Below are positions 2,478-18,147 of a stretch of 64,000 nucleotides of DNA, one piece after another. Positions within the stretch are counted from its first letter, which is position 1. Every line of letters begins with the position of its first letter. Both the position numbers and the translations under genes were made by a program. The notes below the pieces were generated by a model, which saw only the letters and a list, made by a program, of their open reading frames with translations, did not search any database and had not been told where the DNA came from. The DNA is from Lophium mytilinum (lineage: Eukaryota): NCBI GenBank assembly GCA_010093605.1, contig MU004204.1, positions 80,959 through 144,958 of the forward strand. Direction: 5' to 3'.

Positions 2478-3011
2478 AGCCGTGCGTTCAACGCTAAGCC
2501 TTTCGAATAATCATCACGCGTGTATAGAGGTGAGGAAAATGAGTTCTACTAGGAGGTGGAAACAAATTCGTAGCGACTTTTTGTGGGAGGTCGCATGTAG
2601 GGATGGGTGGGTGGCATTATGACGCGAGTTTTTCTGCTTGAGCTGTGGTATGCTCGCTGCACTTATTGACTGATGAAGCAAACGCACAAGTCCGCTTTCT
2701 GCTTCTCAAAGCCTCATTTGTTCGCCCTTCTGGCATCTGCTAGGTAGATTGATTCAATTGATGGGTTGTTCTTTCTTTCAGAAATATTTGAAGTTCTAGA
2801 GAGTTCGGCGCATTGTTGTTTGCTGTTTATGCGCCTTTCTCTTGTCCCACACCAACTCATCTCTACTATTCTACTTTCTTTGTCCCCCGCCACTGTGGTC
2901 ATTCATCCAGATCCCAGGAACAGCCAAGACTGATCGTCCCACCCCTCACTCTTCTTCTCTCCGCTTCGTCATCTTGGAATACTCACATGAGTTTCTCTCA
3001 GCATCACAAAA

Positions 3012-3576
3012 ATGCACGTCCCAACGTCCACCCTCTTTCTCCCCCTCCTCCTCCTCTTCCTCCACATCTCCCTAACAACCGCCTTCCATCCCCGCCACCA
3101 CACCCACCGCCCCACATCCACCAGCCCGCACGCCCTCGCCGTCCGCGCCCCCGCACCCGTCCCCAACCTCCCCGGCCCGCCGCCGCCAACCCCACTCCCC
3201 TTCATGTTCTGCGACTGGTCCCACAAGCTGCACTGGGGGTGTCCGAACGCCAATAACGGAGGCGTGAAGCAGAAGTGCGACTCGCCGTGGATCTCGGAGA
3301 GGAAGAAGGGGAGCTGTGCGGGGGCGTGTCGGAGCTTGGCGAGTAAGGAGAGCAAGAGGAGGGGAGTGAAGGGGAAGGGGGGTGTTGGGGAGCCCGGGTG
3401 GGGGACGTGTTATTATTGCTATGATGGGCATTTGGAGGTGAGTTTTTGGTGGGCTAGTAGGCGGAGATGGGAAAGGGAGGGGGGTATGCGATTTGGGGAT
3501 AGTGCTAATAGCGTTTTAGGCGCTCGTGCAGCCGTTTTGGGATAAGGATTGCAATGGGAGGGACGATGATGGGTGA
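3012..3576 (+). CDS. Small secreted cysteine-rich protein, about 160 aa, exons 3012-3437 and 3520-3576
   Basis: Hydrophobic signal peptide (LFLPLLLLFLHISLTTA) and a His/Pro-rich pro-region. The intron GTGAGT...GCTAAT...TTTAG is canonical, and splicing it adds ALVQPFWDKDCNGRDDDG*, giving 8 Cys in total. Confidence 0.8.
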
Positions 3577-4125
3577 GGGGGGTCCAAATGGGGTAGGACG
3601 GATGTATAAGTGAGGAGGGGACGAAGAGGGTGGGGCTGTAGGATCAGGTTGGGTTTGGAGGGACGCACAATTTTCAATTTCGAGCTTTGGAGACGGATAC
3701 TGCTGAAATTTAGTAAATAACGTATTGGGCTGTAAGGTACTATGTTTCGCGGCGTAGAGTTGAAGAGAGTGACAAGCCAACGTTCCAATCTCCCTCCCAA
3801 TTGTTTGAAGTACAACTTAGATCTCGAAAATGAGAATGATGTCCTTTGTGTCAAATGAAACATGAAAAATCTAGTGATTCATTGATATTGGAGTGAATGA
3901 TCAATAAAGTGAAAGATTGGTTTGGAGTCACGTGATGAGGGGCCTGCTCCGTATCATTCCGAAGAATACCTCCACCGGGCCACGGGCCACTTTCCTGCCA
4001 AAACATCCAACTCTCTACTTCATGTACTCTAACTGCACCTAAGGTAGGCCTGCGATGACATCTCCCAGGTATCCCAAGCACCATTATAGCACAATGCCTA
4101 GAGGCTCCTACCTTCATGGTATCAT

Positions 4126-4170
4126 TCGGTGACTCGGTGACTCGGTATCCCGCGTAACCACTTGACGTCA
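4126..4170. promoter_or_regulatory. P450 promoter element: (TCGGTGAC)x2.7 direct repeat plus a TGACGTCA palindrome
   Basis: TCGGTGAC at 4126 and 4134, TCGGTA at 4142, and TGACGTCA at 4163-4170, all 120-160 bp upstream of the ATG. Confidence 0.35.
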
Positions 4171-8900: not shown

Positions 8901-9694
8901 GTAGAAAAGGTGTCAGTCTTGGAGAATTGAATCTTAGTCCATCTCCCCGGGTATCTTTCCAACCCAGCAGCCGTCCCAATGCTGCCGTTCCCGACCATTC
9001 CCTTGCTCTGCTTTCCTGGCTCCTGGTTCTTTTAGTCTAGGATTTCCCGCAGGCAATTTGTATATAGAAACCCATCACCCTCAGACCGCAGCCCCTGCGT
9101 CGATGCTACTCCAGCCGTTCTAACCAGACCTTCCTCACCCCCGAAAGCAAATTTGACGTCGTAGAAAATAAATTGTATGTGTAGGGTGTGTTCCGAGATC
9201 CATGGAACTGTTAAAGCAAATCTTGTGTGCAACCCTCATGAACGCCGTTCCGCTATGCTGTTCCATCTTCCCCCGGCTCCCAGTCCTCGAGAGGTCAGGA
9301 TGGATTTGCGCCAGCAGTGCTCCCGTTTCGATGCTGTAGGAGAAATCATCCCAAAATGGTCGCGGTGACGGAAGGAGTGTCGAGAATTGAAGAATGATGA
9401 TGGCCCCTACTATGGCCTGCCCGTTTGCCCCGATGCCACCCATACCTGGAAATGCTAGCCCCCAAAACACCCCAAGACACCTCTCGCACCCCAGCCAGGT
9501 TATTCGTAGTCATTCGTGAGTTGTGAATAATGTTGATTAAATGTGGCTCCGGTAGATGTCGAAAACTCCACGAATTAGGCAGTGTGACCAGCACACCACG
9601 CTTCCTACTTCTCAGCAACACTAAGAAGCTCCCGCATACAAGTACCGCGACCCATAGATTAATACGTATGCAGGTCCTCGAATTGGTCAGATAG

Positions 9695-10879
9695 TCATTG
9701 GAAAGGCGGAGCCGGGTCGCTCGAGCTGCCAGCCATCTGCGATTGCGTGTAGGGGCCTTCATCCCCCTCCCCTTCTGCCTCCTCGGCCTCGGCGTCTAAC
9801 TCCATGGACTTGTCTTTGCACGCCGCTGCCGAGAATCCGCTGCCCACCTTGGACGAGATGATGCGCCACCGGTCGTTCTCGTACTCCTGCATGGCGGTGC
9901 GCAGCTTCTGGACCTATCACCAGATGTGGTTAGCCAAGTCCGTCGCCAAATATAAGGGTAGGGCGGGCGTTGTTCGCTTGAGGTCTCAAACACCAGACGT
10001 CGCGGATCTCAACGACACCCGCGCCTCTTCACTGCCGGCACTCACCATTTCATCGGTCCACACGGTCGTCTTCGCCTTCAGCTTCGTACAGTATCGAACC
10101 TGCAGCGTTCCGGAACTGCGCCCAGGGAAGAAATCGGCTATTTGCTTCCATGTAAGGTTCTTCTTCTCCTTGAGATCTACGAGTAGCCCGTCGTCCTCGG
10201 GCGTAAACTTTAGTTTGGGACCTCGCGGGCGCGGTGCCGGCGCTGGCATCCCCTCTTGCCCAACCACGCTGGGAGGGCCATGGTGGTGCGAGGGAGAAGA
10301 CGCCTGTTCGCCGTAGCGGGGCATCTTGTTGGGACGGCCGATGTTGGGCAAGTGATGATGATGTTCGCGCGGTAGAGAGAGCGGACCGGTCGGTTGCGGT
10401 TGGTAGTGAAGGGCAAGGCCCTGAGGCTGCGCGTGATGGCCACCAGGGGTTAGTTCGACCTGGACGTCGCTGGAGCCTTGCTGGACGTCTCCGGGGATTT
10501 CTTCCAGGCCTTGTAGATCTAGCTGGAGGTCCTCGTGCGGGCGGGAGCGCTTGCGGTTTTGCGCCTGGCCGTAGTCGAGATGGGGTTGTCGGGATCCGTA
10601 GGAAGAGGTTGGTGATGACTGCTGCATCGGCTGGTGGCGCAAGAGATGCGATTGATGTAAATTGGGGTGGCTCTCGATACTTGTGACCTGACCGAGGTGA
10701 TGATGTCCGCCATGGTGCTGGAGTGTTTGATGCTGCTGCTGTGGCTGCAGGAAGGGGTTCTGGGGCCCCAGGCCATAATGGAGGACATGTTGATTGTCGA
10801 CGTTTGAGGACGGAATCTGGTCTTCTCCCGGGTTTTCTTGCACGTAATCGAGGGAGAAGCCTCGATAGGAGCCCGCCAG
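9695..10879 (-). CDS. Myb/SANT two-repeat transcription factor with a His/Gln-rich N-terminus (here Myb-A). Exons 10879-10046 and 9913-9695; start codon uncertain (candidate CUG at 10879)
   Basis: KLKFTPEDDGLLVDLKEKKNLTWKQIADFFPGRSSGTLQVRYCTKL, then VWTDEM|VQKLRTAMQEYENDRWRIISSKVGSGFSAAACKDK across the intron GTGAGT...GCTAAC...TAG. The frame is open up to an in-frame TAG near 10901. Confidence 0.9.
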
Positions 10880-11393
10880 CGTTGCGAATATGCATGGAGA
10901 CTACCAGAGCTAGCTTGCTCTGGCAGGCCGCCGCAGTGAGACCTGAGCCAGAAGAGGATGTGGTTTGAGACGCGGTAGCGAGGGCCAGCAGCGGCGTATC
11001 GCACGTGTTTGGGAAGGTTCGTGTTTTGCTATATTGACAAATGTTGCAGCAGTAGTAGCCTGGGGCGACGCGCCATCCAGCGTGTGTGCTATCGTTGTGT
11101 TAAGCGTCAGGATGCCAGATATAGGCGCGAAGCAACAAAACCTTTCTCGAGGGCGAGTCGGGCGCGCAGTGCATTATAACCAGAGTCGCGCAAGGCAGGA
11201 GAGGCATTGAGATTTGGGGCGTGCTCATGGACATCAAAAGCGCCGGTCCTGTGCAATTGCCACACGGACACGGTCGTCCAAGCACGAGAGGCAATAGGTA
11301 CATCCACGAGACGGCCTTTGTTCCTGAAGGGTAGGGAGCTGGCTGAGTAGGGCAAGCCCAGGACGGATTCTACGTCAAGCATAATGCAGTGAT

Positions 11394-13206
11394 CAACTGC
11401 CGGGGGCCCAACCCAGCACTAGATCTGGACAGTAGTCGCAGTCATTTGCCCGTTGCAATGCGCCCGACGTCGTGTTTTGAGTGGCTGACGACTCAAATTG
11501 AGGGCTGTACTGAATAGGTTGAGCTGGTTCCAATTGAGCAGTCGCCCGAACACTGCTCGAGCCCGCAGAGGCTCCGCCCGCACGTATGCCAGCACACATA
11601 GAGGAGCCAGGAAGCCCATGGCCGGCTCTGCGGCCGTTGCAGGCCCTCCGCGGCGGCGTCAGCTAGGCCAGCCCTATTTCTAGAACGCCGCTCGAAGATC
11701 TCCAGCGCCGTTGGAGAGCGCCATGGCCGATCCCGGCAGCCATCGCCACACCAAGGATGCGCATAGAATCAATACCGGCAGGGAGATGAGCAGTTCGCAG
11801 CAGAAGCCAGTGCGCCGCCGAGGCCGCCCAACACTGACGGCCGACAAAACGGCATGCTGGCCGACGCCGTTGCTGGGAGCTGACGGGTGAGGTACTTACC
11901 GCGGCTTCAGCGCCAGCACAGGGCGGCGGGGGCACATGAGGCATAGGGGCTGACGGGGAGGATGAAAGGAGAGCACTTAGCCAGGCACGCAACGCGCCGG
12001 GAGGCTGCTGAGGACTCGCAATAGGTACGCTGTGCAGCCTCTGACGCATACACATCATGCCCTCTAGCGGTGGCTTCAGGTGCTCGGCTGCCGCATATGC
12101 GGTTTCAGTTGGTATATTCGAGGCCCATGTCTATATGCGCTTCGCCATGCCGGCAGCAGTGCGAGGATCGCCCGAGCCACAGCTGGAGACTTCCGACGGC
12201 CAGGTGCAGCCCAGAATGACGCACAAACAAATGCGGGCAGCCTGCGGTGGCAACTGTACGGCGGCGAATTTTGGGAACCTTTGGAAGTATTTTGGTGTTG
12301 TGGTGTTGCAGTGATGGTGGTGATTGATGGGCCCCGTTGAGGCATGAGGTTGGGATCAAACTGCCGGGCGGCGAAGAAGCGCGGGATGCGAAGGCTTGGC
12401 GAAGGGTGCGCCACGACTCCTGACAGTGCTCTATTTCTCAGCGACATCACTTCACCGCAACGATAAACTCGGTCCACCTGATCTATCGGCATGCCGCTTC
12501 CAGCCGCCAGTGCGATGGGCGACGAGGCGAAGGCTGTCCGCCCTCTGCAGCGCATCAGCATTCACATTTTCTACTCTCCGCCCCCGGCCTCAACGCGAAG
12601 CGCTTGCACGTGATGGGGACTCCCTGTGGGCTCAGTTGCTCCTTAGACTCGCTCTAAACGGCTCCCAGGAGGGTACCCCGGCGTTGCTGTCCCAGGGGCC
12701 CCCTCCCTGTACATTCGTCATGTCATCACCGCTCCGGCGGTGCTACTCGAGTGGCTCGCATTGCGCTGGGACGTTGCTTTGTCTCGTCGTCGCCGTGTCT
12801 GCTTTATCCATTTAGGCTGTTGCAGCAGCCCTCAGTGGCCTGGAATTCGGGCGAGATAACCTCTGCCGATTTGTCACCTCCCCTATGCTCTGCGCGTTTC
12901 GGCTACTGGGCCCTACGCCTGTTTCGACACGGCTCGTATCTCGTAGGCCTGGTGTTTCGTCCCGGCGCCAGGGCTCAGGAGCATGCGTCAAGCGAGCGGC
13001 CGCTGAATCGCACCATCACTCAATCTGCAAATCTCATCGCCATCTCGTCAGCATCCCGACTCCCGTCGCGCAACGGCGACTTCTCCACACCTCCACCACA
13101 TCGGCTCGGCAGCATAGCCGAATGGACTGCCCGCTCCCGTGCCGTTGCACCATCACTGACCGAGATTCGGCGGGCGGAATGGAACCAGCAGACCGCCAGC
13201 CAGTTG
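11394..13206. promoter_or_regulatory. Cluster of Myb-consensus hexamers (CAACGG/CAACTG on either strand) upstream of Myb-A
   Basis: CCGTTG at 11450, 11634, 11708, 11867, 12334 and 13142; CAACGG at 13071; CAACTG at 11394 and 12251; CAGTTG at 12106, 12633 and 13201. Confidence 0.45.
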
Positions 13207-13772
13207 GCAGTGGAGTAGCGGCGTACAGCGATACGCTGAGTCAAGCCGCATGGTGCTACTGGCCTCCGATCGGCGAATCCTAGTGATGGAAGGCATGCGT
13301 TTCGTCGAGCAGCGGTGGACAGCGAATGACCAAATTCGAAACAAAAGACTGATTAAACTGACCAATGGCTCCCGCTGGCCGGCCCAGCGCGCGGAGGGCC
13401 GTCCAAGTGCATCAAGGAGCGGGCTCCCCGGCAGGCGGTTGCCTATACTAAGCAAGCGGATATCATCCAGCAAGATTTTCCTCGACCTGATGACCCAGAA
13501 CCATGGAAAGACTCAAAAAAAGGACCAGACCCAGGAGATTACACGAGAGACGCACCCGAAGCACCAGACCGAAGGCCGAACGGAAATGCACATATGCCTC
13601 GACGACTCCTCCGCCAAGAGAGAACCGTGTCCAAAGAGCCCCAAGCAACAGACGGCTGCCGACAGGTCCTGCGATCGGCGGATGCTGCATGCAATACTCC
13701 ATTACAACCAAAGAGAGCTGGTATCATAAGCAAGACGCTAATCCGGAAACACGCAGGCTGTGCTCTTGAACC

Positions 13773-14743
13773 TCACAGCTTCCCACCAAAATGCTCTTTC
13801 GCATACGACTCGCACGCCTGTCCACCCGTTAGTTGGCTGCGGGCGACTTCCCAACACGGAAGAATGAGCTCGGCCTACTTTTGCAGGTTTTCCCACTTTC
13901 GTGCCAATGACTTTCCACTTGTTGGCGTCGTACTCCTTGATCGCCGCCAGCAGAGCTGCACTCTATATATCTGGTCAACGAGACACTGCTAATTGCCTCA
14001 GCCGGAAGAGGGACCCACCTCGTCTTCTCCAAACTCGGCATAGTGCATATCCTGGAGACAGTGTCGTCAGCATTGCAGTCCTACAAGTACCATCAATCGC
14101 CAAGTTTGCCCGTACCTTGTACCAGTGCTTTTTCACACTGCCCTCTGTTCGGTGCGGAAAGGTCTAAGGCACAGACATGCAAATCAGCGACCCCAGTTTC
14201 CAACGTATCCCTAGATCAAAAGTGTGGTGCGTCTGTCTCTCGAGTATGTTTGTCTACCTTTGCAATTTCGCTCCAGCTGTTTCCCGCATCTCTCATTTGC
14301 TTCAACGTCTGCTCCTCTTTTGCCGTCCACGGCGTGTTTGTCCGACCCTTCTTCACCACGGGCTGCTGCGGCGGCGGGTCGAGATCCGCCACAGGCGCGG
14401 TGGCCAGGCCATACCCGCTTGACGCGGCGGCCGTGGATGACGCTATAGGCTTAGCCTCGAAGTCAGAGCCCATGGAGGACTTTCGTTTTCTGGAGTTCCC
14501 GGGCGTGGGCGGAGGGCCGAATGCCGAGACGCTTGGATTGGCGGCAGGGAGCGCGTTAGAGGAGTCGGTCGAGATGTACTGAGTCGTGGGAGCGATGGGT
14601 GAGGGTTTCAGGTTGCGCTTCGCAGCGGGCGACGACCTGTGAAACGGAGAGTACCACGTCAGCACTCACGAGGTAGGAGGGGCAGAGAGTGGACTAAACG
14701 GGTCGGGGCATCCAGCAAGTGAGGTCGAGGGGACTCACGACAT
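13773..14743 (-). CDS. Myb/SANT two-repeat protein, about 197 aa (here Myb-B), 6 exons: 14743-14739, 14636-14258, 14163-14116, 14051-14019, 13962-13879, 13817-13773
   Basis: Spliced translation ...KKGRTNTPWTAKEEQTLKQMRDAGNSWSEIAK|TFPHRTEGSVKKHWYK|DMHYAEFGEDE|SAALLAAIKEYDANKWKVIGTKVGKPAK|ACESYAKEHFGGKL*. It shows the W-x18-19-W spacing of Myb repeats, and all junctions are GT-AG and in frame. Confidence 0.92.
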
Positions 14744-17090
14744 GACGGATTAGCCGTCGTTTATGCGGCAGGCGGCGTGGGGAGGTAGGTGGGCTTTTCA
14801 CTTGTCACGTCGAGGGCATCTGCAACCTTTGGGAGGAGGTCAAACCGGTTCACGAGCACTCAGAGTGACAAGCTGCCTGTATTGTGGTGGCAGTAGATCA
14901 TGATGATATTCAAGCAGGCAGATCATCAGTCGGGTGTAGGCGCTGATCCAGTACATGGATACAAGAGAGCTAGGTTCGCAGGCAGGCGAACGAATAGTAC
15001 AGCGCGTGTGGAGGAGGACAGCGGGGGCCTCTGGGGTTCATTGGGGCCGCGGACTCGCAGCCGGCTAGGGCTGTGTGGAGGGTGTTGAGCGGACGCATGA
15101 GGGCGTACAGCTACTTCAAACTCTATACAAAACCCCCAGCAGACAAAGTAGCAGTACCGGGAGGGAGAAAGCGGGGTAGGCGGGCGCAGATGAAAGCGGG
15201 TGGAGCCCTGGTGCGGGATTCGACGACGTCGTCACGCGGACCGCCTTGTTCATGCAAGTGATGCAGCAGGGCAGAAGCAGACGTGCTGGCCGGCCACTAC
15301 AGACTCTCGAGCAGCGCGGTGCGGCGTCGAGGTCAGCTTTGAGTGCAGCGCGGCGAAGTGTTGGCTGGTCTACGGAGCGGTGCCGCTGCAGACAGATATC
15401 GTCAGGCTGCAAGTGCTGCAGCTGTGCAGACTCGCTGCGGCCATCGGACGAACGAGAGCATCGATATAGATGCTGTGAGCAGAAGAACCCCGCCTGCCCA
15501 CATCGTTGGAGTCGTACGAAGTCGTGCTCGTGCTGCTCAGATACCATGCACTGCGCCGCACCGTCTCTCCCACACCCGGCCAGCTTGTGAGAATTCATCG
15601 GCGGGACGAATCAGCTCAGAAGCTAGCAGCATTATCATTGCGCTTTTCCCCGCGGTGGTGTCAGCATACCCCAGCCAGCGGTCGATGCGCCCAGAAGCAG
15701 TGAGTGTTGCAGATGGCGCGGACAGTTCCCTCGAATCACTGCTACAGCTGAGTACGGAGTCCGTATCCACCAACAGTGTACATACGACTACATGCACAGC
15801 GGCTGGCATGCACGTCAGTTCTCTGATCTCGCAGCTGGGGGAGAGCGTAGTCGCGACGATGGTGGTGGTGTTTCCCGCCGCCAAGCCTCTACCGTCCAAG
15901 CGCTGGACTTGACACATGAGGCGTGCCGGAGTGTCAGCCTCAGTGTTTGAGCCGGATTTCAACTCCCCCATCGTGTTAGAACATCGCCGACCGCCTCCAG
16001 CAGCTCTGCGAAGCGCGGGACGGCGCTGTTCCGAGCCATGTTTGCAGTTTGCACCTCTGACAGCCGTTCCAGCTGGTGCCCATGGTTTCGACGGCTCGAC
16101 CGAGTGCTCCTCGACGACGACACCTCGACGCCATCAGACAAGCGGCGCCGCAGAGTACCACCAGCTGCAGTCAGACAGGGCTTTTGAGTGCCATCTTTCC
16201 GCATGCCAGCTCTCCGGTACTCACTACCAGCACAAGCCTCGACATATCGACAACAAGCCTCCCACACAAGGTCCTATTGACAACAAGCTCCGACTAACCC
16301 ACAACCCCAGCGGCAAAATAGGGCCCTCTACAACTCTATCCGCGTTCTGGCCACTCCTTGCGCAGAGCCAGATCCTACTGTTAGCGCCCGCTATCGCCGC
16401 TCCTCTAAGGCTTGTTTCTGCTCTCCCCGCCTGATACACGGCCGCCGCTGCTCCAGCAATCACAGAGCGTGGATTTCCCCCCCTCGTTGCGAGTTTTGAA
16501 ACCCGTTTCTAGCAAGGCTGCTTCGGGGGGCACTTTCATGCACTCGTGCCTCTGATCTGTCCCAGATCCCGTGCCCGCTTCTCCGCCAAGCCGCTGCTCC
16601 GGCCCGATGCGGCATGGTGCGTCTCGCATCGCGGGTTTCCAAAACAGATGGCCCAAGGTGCCGCTCCTCCACCATGGCGACGATCAAAACTTAGCCTGCA
16701 GGAGGGGGTTTGAAAACGCTGTCAACACGCCTTCCAGCCACTCCAATCATCATGCTTTCGCCGCGTAGACCGCCTGCCGCTAGAAGGGTGCTAACTATAT
16801 ATCCACCGTCCCAAGGCCCCGATTGTTGACGCCTCATCCGCTATTGTGCTCTCGGCTTCAGTCTTTTTCTCTTAGCAGCCTTGTAATACTTTCCTTCACT
16901 TCCCACTGGTTGGGCTGCCTTACATTCTTTAATCGACATTGCTGAGCAATACGACTGTTGTGTCTACCGCACACTTAATCCATTCTTTCACATATACCAG
17001 TTTTTGCAATAACGTCAGGCACGAATCCTAACGACTTGAACATTGGACCTCTTTACACAATCTCTACAACACAACAACGAATCAAGCATC

Positions 17091-18147
17091 ATGCTTCATC
17101 ACCACTCTTCTCAGGCGCTCTCTCCTCTGACCGAAGTGGACTCCAACTCGTCTGGCCTCCGGGCACGCAAGATGTCCTCCACAGGCGGCAACAGGTCCTG
17201 GTCTGAGGAAGAGGTGAGTTGAAGCTACAGTTTGGCCCAAGAACATTGCTGACAGCATCAAGGAAAACTATCTCCTTCAGACTCGCATGCAGAAGATGCC
17301 CTATAAGCACATCGCTGCTCACCTTAAGAAGACGGAGTTGGCCTGCCGCCTCCACTACCACCAGCTCTCTCACGGAAGCCATCGCCGCAAGCGGACCGCT
17401 TCTGTCTCTTCCACGGCCTCTTCCCACTCCGCTGGCCAATCTCCGCATCCTCACTACTCCATGCCTAACGACCGCGACGACTATTTGGAGTCATCTCGCC
17501 ACGCTTCTCCGGTCAACTACGCCAGCAATAGCCCTCAAGTCCGTCCGGCTCCTCTCAACACCTCGCCCAATCGCAGCCAACATAAGATTCTCCTCCCTAA
17601 GCCTCGTCCCTTGACACCCCGCCACTCCCCGGAACCCCACAACGCTCTCCGAATCAATACCGCCGACATCCATCACCACAAAGTCATTGACACCGAACGC
17701 CTCCGCGCCATCTACGAAGGTCGCCGTGCACAATTTTGGGCCACTGTCGCTGCTGACTACGGAGCTGATGTTTCTCCTGCCCAGCTAGAGGAAATATGGC
17801 GCACCGGTACGAATATCGCTCGCCCACCTACCCCGGATGCCTCCCCAGATGGCAGCATCATGGCTCATCCCATGTTGAAGCCTTCTCCCTTCGCCTACCC
17901 TTCCACCTCCGCGTCTGCCACCGACCCCTGCAAGAACTTCTCCCCATTCCATAACATCAGCGCCATTTCCGCCCCGGACCGCTTGCCGTTCGTCCTGCCC
18001 ATGCCCGTGCAGACACCCATTCAGGGCCGTCTGTCTCGTGCCTCGACATGGGGATCAAACAGCTCCGGGGGTAACAACGTCCCGATCGCAGCACTCTTGA
18101 CCGAAGATCGGGAACCCAGGGGTGAAGATGCTGGCATGAGGGATTAG
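17091..18147 (+). CDS. Single-repeat Myb-like protein (here Myb-C), exons 17091-17213 and 17263-18147
   Basis: NRSWSEEE|ENYLLQTRMQKMPYKHIAAHLKKTELACRLHYHQL followed by a basic HRRKR patch. Intron GTGAGT...GCTGAC...AAG; TATATA at about 16797. Confidence 0.88.

Follow-up and report, generated by a model that had tools for sequence, protein, structure and literature searches.

A conserved CUG codon as the probable start of a fungal Myb gene, behind a conserved hairpin and a poor-context upstream AUG

Conserved near-cognate starts are already known in fungal bZIP genes (cpc-1, and IDI-4 via PMC5487733). As described in the accessible parts of PMC5487733, Neurospora crassa cpc-1 is a Pezizomycotina transcription factor gene in which an optimal-context near-cognate codon is conserved in frame, the N-terminal extension is under purifying selection and a −1-frame uORF is inhibitory, and in all of these it resembles Myb-A, the Myb gene of Lophium mytilinum described here. 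It differs in having several near-cognates that lie upstream of uORF2 and bypass it, together with a conserved main AUG, and near-cognate reporter output in vivo is below 1% of that of the main AUG; Myb-A, in contrast, has one CUG, 16 nt downstream of an upstream AUG (uAUG) and after a conserved hairpin, as its apparent main start. The Podospora anserina bZIP factor IDI-4, for which a conserved CUG start has been proposed (as cited in PMC5487733), is likewise a fungal transcription factor, although of another family, and the citing passage makes no mention of a uAUG/hairpin module. The mRNA of eIF5 shares an inhibitory uAUG in conserved poor context (PMC3326321 and PMC7049704, in the sections available), but its main start is a strong AUG, so that low stringency represses eIF5, whereas the Myb-A main start is itself weak and both terms move together. 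Low stringency has been reported, in the same available text on human cells, to raise the use of poor AUGs and of non-AUG codons (PMC3326321). According to the available text of PMC9743702, which concerns synthetic AUG pairs in yeast, an out-of-frame AUG competes in a context-dependent manner with a main start lying no more than about 17 nt away, while the pair studied here is a natural, conserved AUG/CUG pair. All spacings at the Myb-A loci are 4-16 nt. Delayed reinitiation of the GCN4/ATF4 type involves a short first upstream ORF (uORF1) in good context and a long spacing from the inhibitory uAUG to the main start, unlike these loci; the uORF1 seen in 13 of 19 Dothideomycete representatives has 15 codons and a pyrimidine at −3.

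Fusarium MYT1, MYT2 and MYT3, Cochliobolus BZcon1, and Aspergillus MylA and MybA are, like Myb-A, fungal Myb-domain factors. MYT3 (2304 aa) and BZcon1 (N-terminal repeats) were rejected as orthologues, each being a different gene, and the identity of MYT1 and MYT2 with Myb-A was not established, as their primer-derived peptides matched neither the start nor the end of any of the homologues collected. No characterised orthologue was identified in the available text of PMC3184970, PMC3359310 (both including primer tables), PMC3983115, PMC4132175, PMC13630534 and PMC8660761, and a literature search with most subscription journals outside its coverage turned up no fungal Myb gene reported to start at CUG.

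Gene structure and the start codon of Myb-A

The analysed window is a 64,000-nt stretch of L. mytilinum DNA, and Myb-A, with all its features given below, lies on its minus strand. The gene encodes a two-repeat Myb transcription factor of 350 aa counted from the CUG, with the end of the stop codon at 9695. Coding exon 1 (10046..10879) carries the first Myb repeat at its end and matches PF13921 in Pfam (44 bits against a cut-off of 22.9, E 2.5e-11), coding exon 2 (9695..9913) contains the second repeat, an acidic tail and the stop, and a full-length homologue (P0018) shows two PF13921 stretches. Two public runs contain the stretch (X1, and X2 from a related strain or species), neither recorded as RNA, yet the contigs of both skip the 132-nt intron (9914..10045) exactly. 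By its homologues and a rough tree the gene groups with those of Dothideomycetes, and its own genome holds one paralogue-level match (34% identity). The first-pass annotation had proposed that the Myb frame, lacking an in-frame AUG ahead of 10627, is opened by a CUG with out-of-frame AUGs on either side. Re-reading the sequence returned each of the sites on which this proposal was built, namely TAG 10901, ATG 10895, CTG 10879, ATG 10788 and ATG 10627. The CUG (10877..10879) stands in the context GCAACG CUG GC, within gcaacgCTGgcg, and opens an 84-codon N-terminal extension (10628..10879), beginning (M)AGSYRGFSLDY, that AUG-only annotation skips.

Orthologues were collected by a scan anchored on two Myb-domain peptides, which confirmed 220 loci; the best 80 were taken by likeness to the whole query, a ranking that tilts the sample towards loci keeping the extension, and many of them are close kin. 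The start position could be located in 66 of the best 80 out of 220 (12 of the 14 omitted loci are cut at the 5' end, while L053 and L058 are rearranged or chimeric), and the codon there was CTG in 52, ATG in 12 and CTA in 2. Collapse at 93% identity gave 48 representatives covering the compared region: 31 are of the CUG type, 8 have AUG in its place, and 9 belong to one clade, called MAS, whose in-frame AUG precedes the CUG position by 6-7 codons. Two of them (L059 and L043) joined later and are absent from the codon, context and uORF-stop counts, which comprise 30 CUG-type and 7 AUG-replacement loci. Separately, at about 3100-3550 of L058 the start of a third Myb gene is fused to the end of Myb-A exon 1, reflecting either a chimeric assembly or a deletion.

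The codon was CTG in 30/30 CUG-type representatives, compared with a CTG share of 22% (143 of 654) among all Leu codons of these exons and only 4-12 of 30 at seven near-invariant leucines of the Myb domain; since the search pattern required Leu, this comparison measures synonymous invariance. The context was equally constant (A at −3 in 29 loci and G there in one; +4 G in 30/30), and L059 agrees with the pattern in both codon and context. The residue at −1 differs among loci (T, S, K, I, N or A) while the −3 purine stays, which reflects selection on the context and not on the residue. Across 10 disjoint pairs, dN/dS in the Myb frame was 0.30 for codons 1-30, 0.18 for codons 31-80 and 0.12 further down, although synonymous change is itself low in codons 1-30 (pS 0.25 vs about 0.6); these values indicate that the extension is under purifying selection, and Helotiales have it as their annotated N-terminus. 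Three X2 variants fall in the extension, all non-synonymous in the Myb frame, a small count that speaks against such selection. An in-frame stop occurs within 15 codons upstream of the start in 18/39 representatives. ACG 10882 and ATA 10891 were rejected as starts, both codons varying among orthologues. The proposed start thus kept its place on the strength of the CTG, the −3 purine, the +4 G and an upstream peptide that orthologues conserve, where its absence would have favoured a downstream start. An invariant near-cognate codon in optimal context, with coding selection downstream and AUG in its place in some lineages, is what the class of non-AUG starts displays, and we consider it very probable, from these comparisons of sequence, that Myb-A initiates at the CUG. 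By comparison, CUG 10879 is also shown as the likely ancestral start in Dothideomycetes and Sordariomycetes, the two classes in which CUG-type loci were found.

Several lineages have replaced or relaxed the codon. In Helotiales and Erysiphales, annotated proteins begin with an AUG where the CUG would stand (MSGYRPG), and AUG is also found there in L031 (a Pleosporales locus), L043 and L082, which sit on separate branches of a low-resolution tree. The change in L082 is exactly CTG to ATG at the start position, and an exact replacement of this kind marks the codon as a start. Five proteins (P0262, P0347, P0357, P0383 and P0387; P0262 from protein sequence only) have Met at the Leu or 2-4 residues before it, and a protein group with the N-terminus MSAT-LADPY presumably represents Eurotiomycetes. 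The lineages that went from CUG to AUG retain the hairpin, the uAUG and a weak start context; their main AUG has a pyrimidine at −3, which is forced by overlap where the uAUG is at −4 and free where it is at −7. Within the MAS clade, where a real AUG is in charge, the codon has relaxed (CTG 7, CTA 1, ATG 1; +4 G in 5/9), and all 9 representatives live without the module of hairpin, uAUG and CUG, whose features are relaxed there; L033, sister of this clade, has retained the CUG and the −16 uAUG and lacks a stable hairpin. As a separate observation, the extension of L059 (about 2900-4150) is apparently split by small introns, while the CUG, the −16 uAUG and the hairpin persist.

The upstream AUG, the hairpin and the downstream AUGs

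The poor-context AUG at 10895 that had been reported to open 281 out-of-frame codons is real: it has T at −3, lies 16 nt upstream of the CUG and begins the overlapping uORF2 (10050..10895). An out-of-frame uAUG stands 13-16 nt upstream in 30/31 CUG-type representatives (at −16 in 28, at −13 in one and at −14, in the other frame, in L074), the exception being L064. Its −3 position is a pyrimidine in 30/30 CUG-type loci, a conserved poor context as also known from eIF5 mRNA, and the AUG-replacement loci keep it in the same frame in 8/8, at −4 (6 loci) or −7 (2 loci). uORF2 always overruns the start, with a length of 24-295 codons (median 183). Under synonymous resampling, stops in the uORF frame over codons 1-80 numbered 8 against 59 expected in the CUG group and 1 against 20 in the 7 AUG-replacement loci, compared with 18 against 21.5 in the MAS clade, where the uAUG has moved in frame; this count, like that of third-frame AUGs below, treats kin as independent and so overstates significance, and with 26 stops against 55 expected in the Myb domain of the CUG group, about half, part of the depletion is generic.

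A conserved uORF2 peptide was rejected, as dN/dS in the uORF frame is 1.36-2.87 down to the Myb domain and the length varies; the uORF2 product had no Pfam match. The features under selection are apparently the uAUG, its poor context and the open overlapping frame, and not the uORF peptide. The first-pass annotation had further noted that uORF2 ends just before the intron donor, which holds in L. mytilinum (10050, 4 nt away) and does not generalise: among 38 representatives with an out-of-frame uAUG only 3 have the end 4 nt from the donor and 6 have it within 31 nt, and in the others it can lie as far as 995 nt upstream, so that a stop positioned at the donor was rejected as a general feature and is species-specific. 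In the uORF frame, at −28, many loci carry a near-cognate CTG, GTG or TTG (CCG in L037 and L047), which the hairpin arm explains equally well. A divergent copy, L064 (about 2500-3500), has kept the CUG and its context, lacks both uAUG and hairpin, and forms a natural control.

Beyond the features noted in the first pass, a conserved RNA hairpin lies at 10901..10926, seen by folding and alignment, with a 10-bp stem (10926-10917 pairing with 10910-10901) that ends 5 nt before the uAUG and contains the in-frame TAG (10903-10901) in its 3' arm. With 40 shuffles per locus for the z scores, the 30 CUG loci gave a mean dG of −20.1 kcal/mol for the 50 nt preceding the uAUG, 20 of them having z below −2; the same 50 nt folded at −25.2 in AUG-replacement loci (8/8 below −2) and at −13.5 in MAS loci (4/8 below −2), compared with −6 to −8 in upstream control windows; a fold of a 141-nt window gave z −1.83. 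Aligned across 30 of the 39 non-MAS representatives, the hairpin has 90% of its cells paired, a level reached by 9/500 shuffles, and slid controls gave 22-54%; RNAalifold retains 7 of the pairs. The changes are mostly G-C to G-U with only 2 double changes, and covariation is weak, its score being reached by 76/500 shuffles. Because an in-frame stop falls within the element in Dothideomycetes, it is not a peptide. An Rfam search of positions 9300-13500 gave no match to the hairpin (0 at E up to 1). Another candidate hairpin, downstream at +14 (dG −9.0, z −2.2), was rejected, being unconserved (median z −0.4; 4/31 below −2). In Sordariomycetes (L056, L065, L078 and proteins), a pyrimidine-rich tract ending in CAG directly precedes the hairpin, and several Sordariomycete database models switch sequence at this tract, their upstream peptides being unlike one another; these are probably invented exons, and a real leader intron is possible.

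Downstream of the CUG, the strong-context third-frame AUG at 10788 described in the first pass is present (atcaacATGtcc, opening 89 codons), and two more follow at 10776 and 10713 in the same third-frame ORF (10519..10788). Third-frame AUGs with a purine at −3 numbered 71 against 40 expected over codons 1-80, compared with 43 against 47 further down; they were not enriched in the AUG-replacement group (10 against 16 expected) and were mildly so in MAS (22 against 14). The first in-frame AUG (10625..10627, cagccgATGcag) has a poor context and may give a minor short isoform of 266 aa.

Leader, promoter and neighbouring genes

uORF1 (11029..11076, AUG with T at −3 and G at +4) lies 133 nt before the uAUG and has equal length in 13 of the 19 Dothideomycete representatives examined; its last codons are nearly invariant even at silent sites, so they may overlap a nucleotide motif. 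An alignment of 16 loci revealed a TATA-like block, TTATAATG (11172..11179), a possible proximal promoter, and its position at 11179 suggests that a shorter leader may also exist. Contigs cover 10900-12337 on the minus strand, which would allow a 1.4-kb leader; 22 AUGs fall between 12200 and 11000, so translation of an mRNA with the full length of the X1 contig would be inefficient, and such a long isoform might coexist with a shorter one. Contigs reveal neither strand nor transcription start, and the contig ends (X1 12337; X2 11152 and 12285) were accordingly rejected as transcription starts. Conserved non-coding islands occur across 11170-12150 (minus strand) in Dothideomycetes, with CGCATATAG near 12140, CAACGG near 11713, TTCTAGAAATA near 11685 and TGACGTAG near 11376; we take CAACGG to resemble a Myb site, and auto- or cross-regulation is possible.

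Two further Myb-like genes, at approximately 13836-14683 (minus) and 17172-18147 (plus), flank Myb-A with seemingly ordinary ATG starts, and in many Dothideomycete loci the first of them is a tandem neighbour 2.2-4.5 kb upstream, which points to a conserved Myb cluster. Over this neighbouring Myb (12991-14900) the X1 contig is unspliced at a depth of 24.5, while X2 contigs skip two introns; the X1 contig may reflect intron retention, an antisense transcript or DNA.

Alternative readings and the proposed start module

Three other origins of the Myb protein have to be weighed against initiation at the CUG. An unseen upstream exon might supply the AUG, for instance ATG 12058 spliced from donor 11899 to acceptor 10901 in frame; the phase would fit, an acceptor AG is present in 24/39 representatives and rare isoforms are lost from contigs. 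Yet the single 3561-nt X1 contig is unbroken from 10044 to 12337 with no differing letter, one X2 contig extends from 10044 to 11152 and another bridges 11899, with 10901 bridged too, and no splice joint into 10945-10900 appears in the contigs of either run, so that both runs are continuous here, allowing for rare isoforms that contigs may drop. The donor is also missing at the aligned position in 7/7 other loci, no CTRAY branch motif occurs within 45 nt of the putative acceptor in any of 39 representatives, and the acceptor AG is replaced in 15 of them (TAG 14, CAG 10, CGG 9, other 6 at this triplet), the TAG/CAG alternation arising because the site is a G-U or G-C hairpin pair. The splice of 11899 into 10901 that the first pass had raised against its own proposal was therefore not borne out, and an upstream exon, which cannot account for the invariance of the CTG, deserves hardly any weight. 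The other doubt raised there, an assembly error hiding an ATG at 10879, found no such variant among those listed for the X1 and X2 contigs, and the CTG stands. Only slightly less improbable is that ribosomes start at the uAUG and reach the Myb frame by frameshifting, a possibility raised for cpc-1 uORF2 in the accessible text of PMC5487733; nearly every uAUG sits in the −1 frame, and in one clade it has itself turned into the in-frame start, but apart from Kozak positions the 13-nt spacer between uAUG and CUG varies freely, and the exact CUG-to-AUG replacement speaks for a start at that codon. Production of the main protein from AUG 10627, as annotated in many orthologues, with the CUG form minor as in cpc-1, seems unlikely, though less so than either of these. 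Pleosporales repeatedly have a Met at about +84 to +88, many named proteins begin at a downstream Met, and the extended cpc-1 forms are minor in vivo (PMC5487733, accessible text). Against this, the first in-frame Met is scattered from +24 to +209 codons among CUG-type loci with a mostly pyrimidine −3 in Pleosporales, it is covered by the uORF in 23/30, a purine −3 out-of-frame AUG lies within codons 1-80 in 30/30 CUG loci, and Helotiales have no Met in codons 1-60 (0/480 codons, AUG-replacement group).

We favour, with a probability of roughly 0.8, a CUG-initiated Myb-A whose start is weakened by the hairpin/uAUG module. In this model three parts, the hairpin, the poor-context uAUG and the CUG, would together hold the start weak. 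Scanning ribosomes would melt the hairpin (about −20 kcal/mol) and then meet the uAUG, where a fraction would be diverted into the long out-of-frame ORF with no return to the Myb frame; the remainder would sample the optimal-context CUG 16 nt on, and those passing it would mostly be caught by third-frame AUGs. Myb-A output would then be approximately the fraction passing the uAUG multiplied by the fraction taking the CUG, hence low and presumably tunable by the state of initiation factors. That the module is a selected throttle on Myb-A appears probable from its conservation.

What the throttle does is a separate matter, and the module could sense, band-pass or buffer. With the CUG real, it may act only as a fixed dampener or buffer that keeps Myb-A at a constant low level and senses nothing, a reading to which we give nearly even odds. 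The poor uAUG and the CUG would both gain when stringency falls, with opposing effects (PMC3326321, available text, human cells), so that the net result could be buffering, and at least one clade has dropped the module. The −16 spacing (28/31), the poor uAUG context and the weak start that persists after CUG-to-AUG replacement suggest tuning instead, although a fixed dampener is still compatible with them. Regulated sensing of stringency, which the first pass had suggested, is plausible and somewhat less favoured. More speculatively, and in our view doubtful, hairpin, uAUG and CUG might form one ancient start-codon competition switch, spread over three fungal classes, that converts initiation-factor state (stringency or ternary-complex level) into Myb dose; in it the hairpin may refold behind a 40S with the CUG in its P site and block back-sliding to the uAUG.

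Collectively, Myb-A is a further, deeply conserved example of a fungal transcription factor whose main start seems to be a non-AUG codon. Gene models are corrected as well: numerous database entries lack part of the protein, and named Dothideomycete and Sordariomycete ones begin further downstream, are flagged as partial or have dissimilar upstream peptides, so tagging or overexpression from the annotated AUG would yield a truncated protein. The natural series of loci (16-, 13-, 7- and 4-nt spacing; CUG or weak AUG; hairpin or module lost) makes close-start competition and bidirectional scanning testable on a native gene, and the conserved hairpin and decoy suggest a built-in brake on the amount of this protein.
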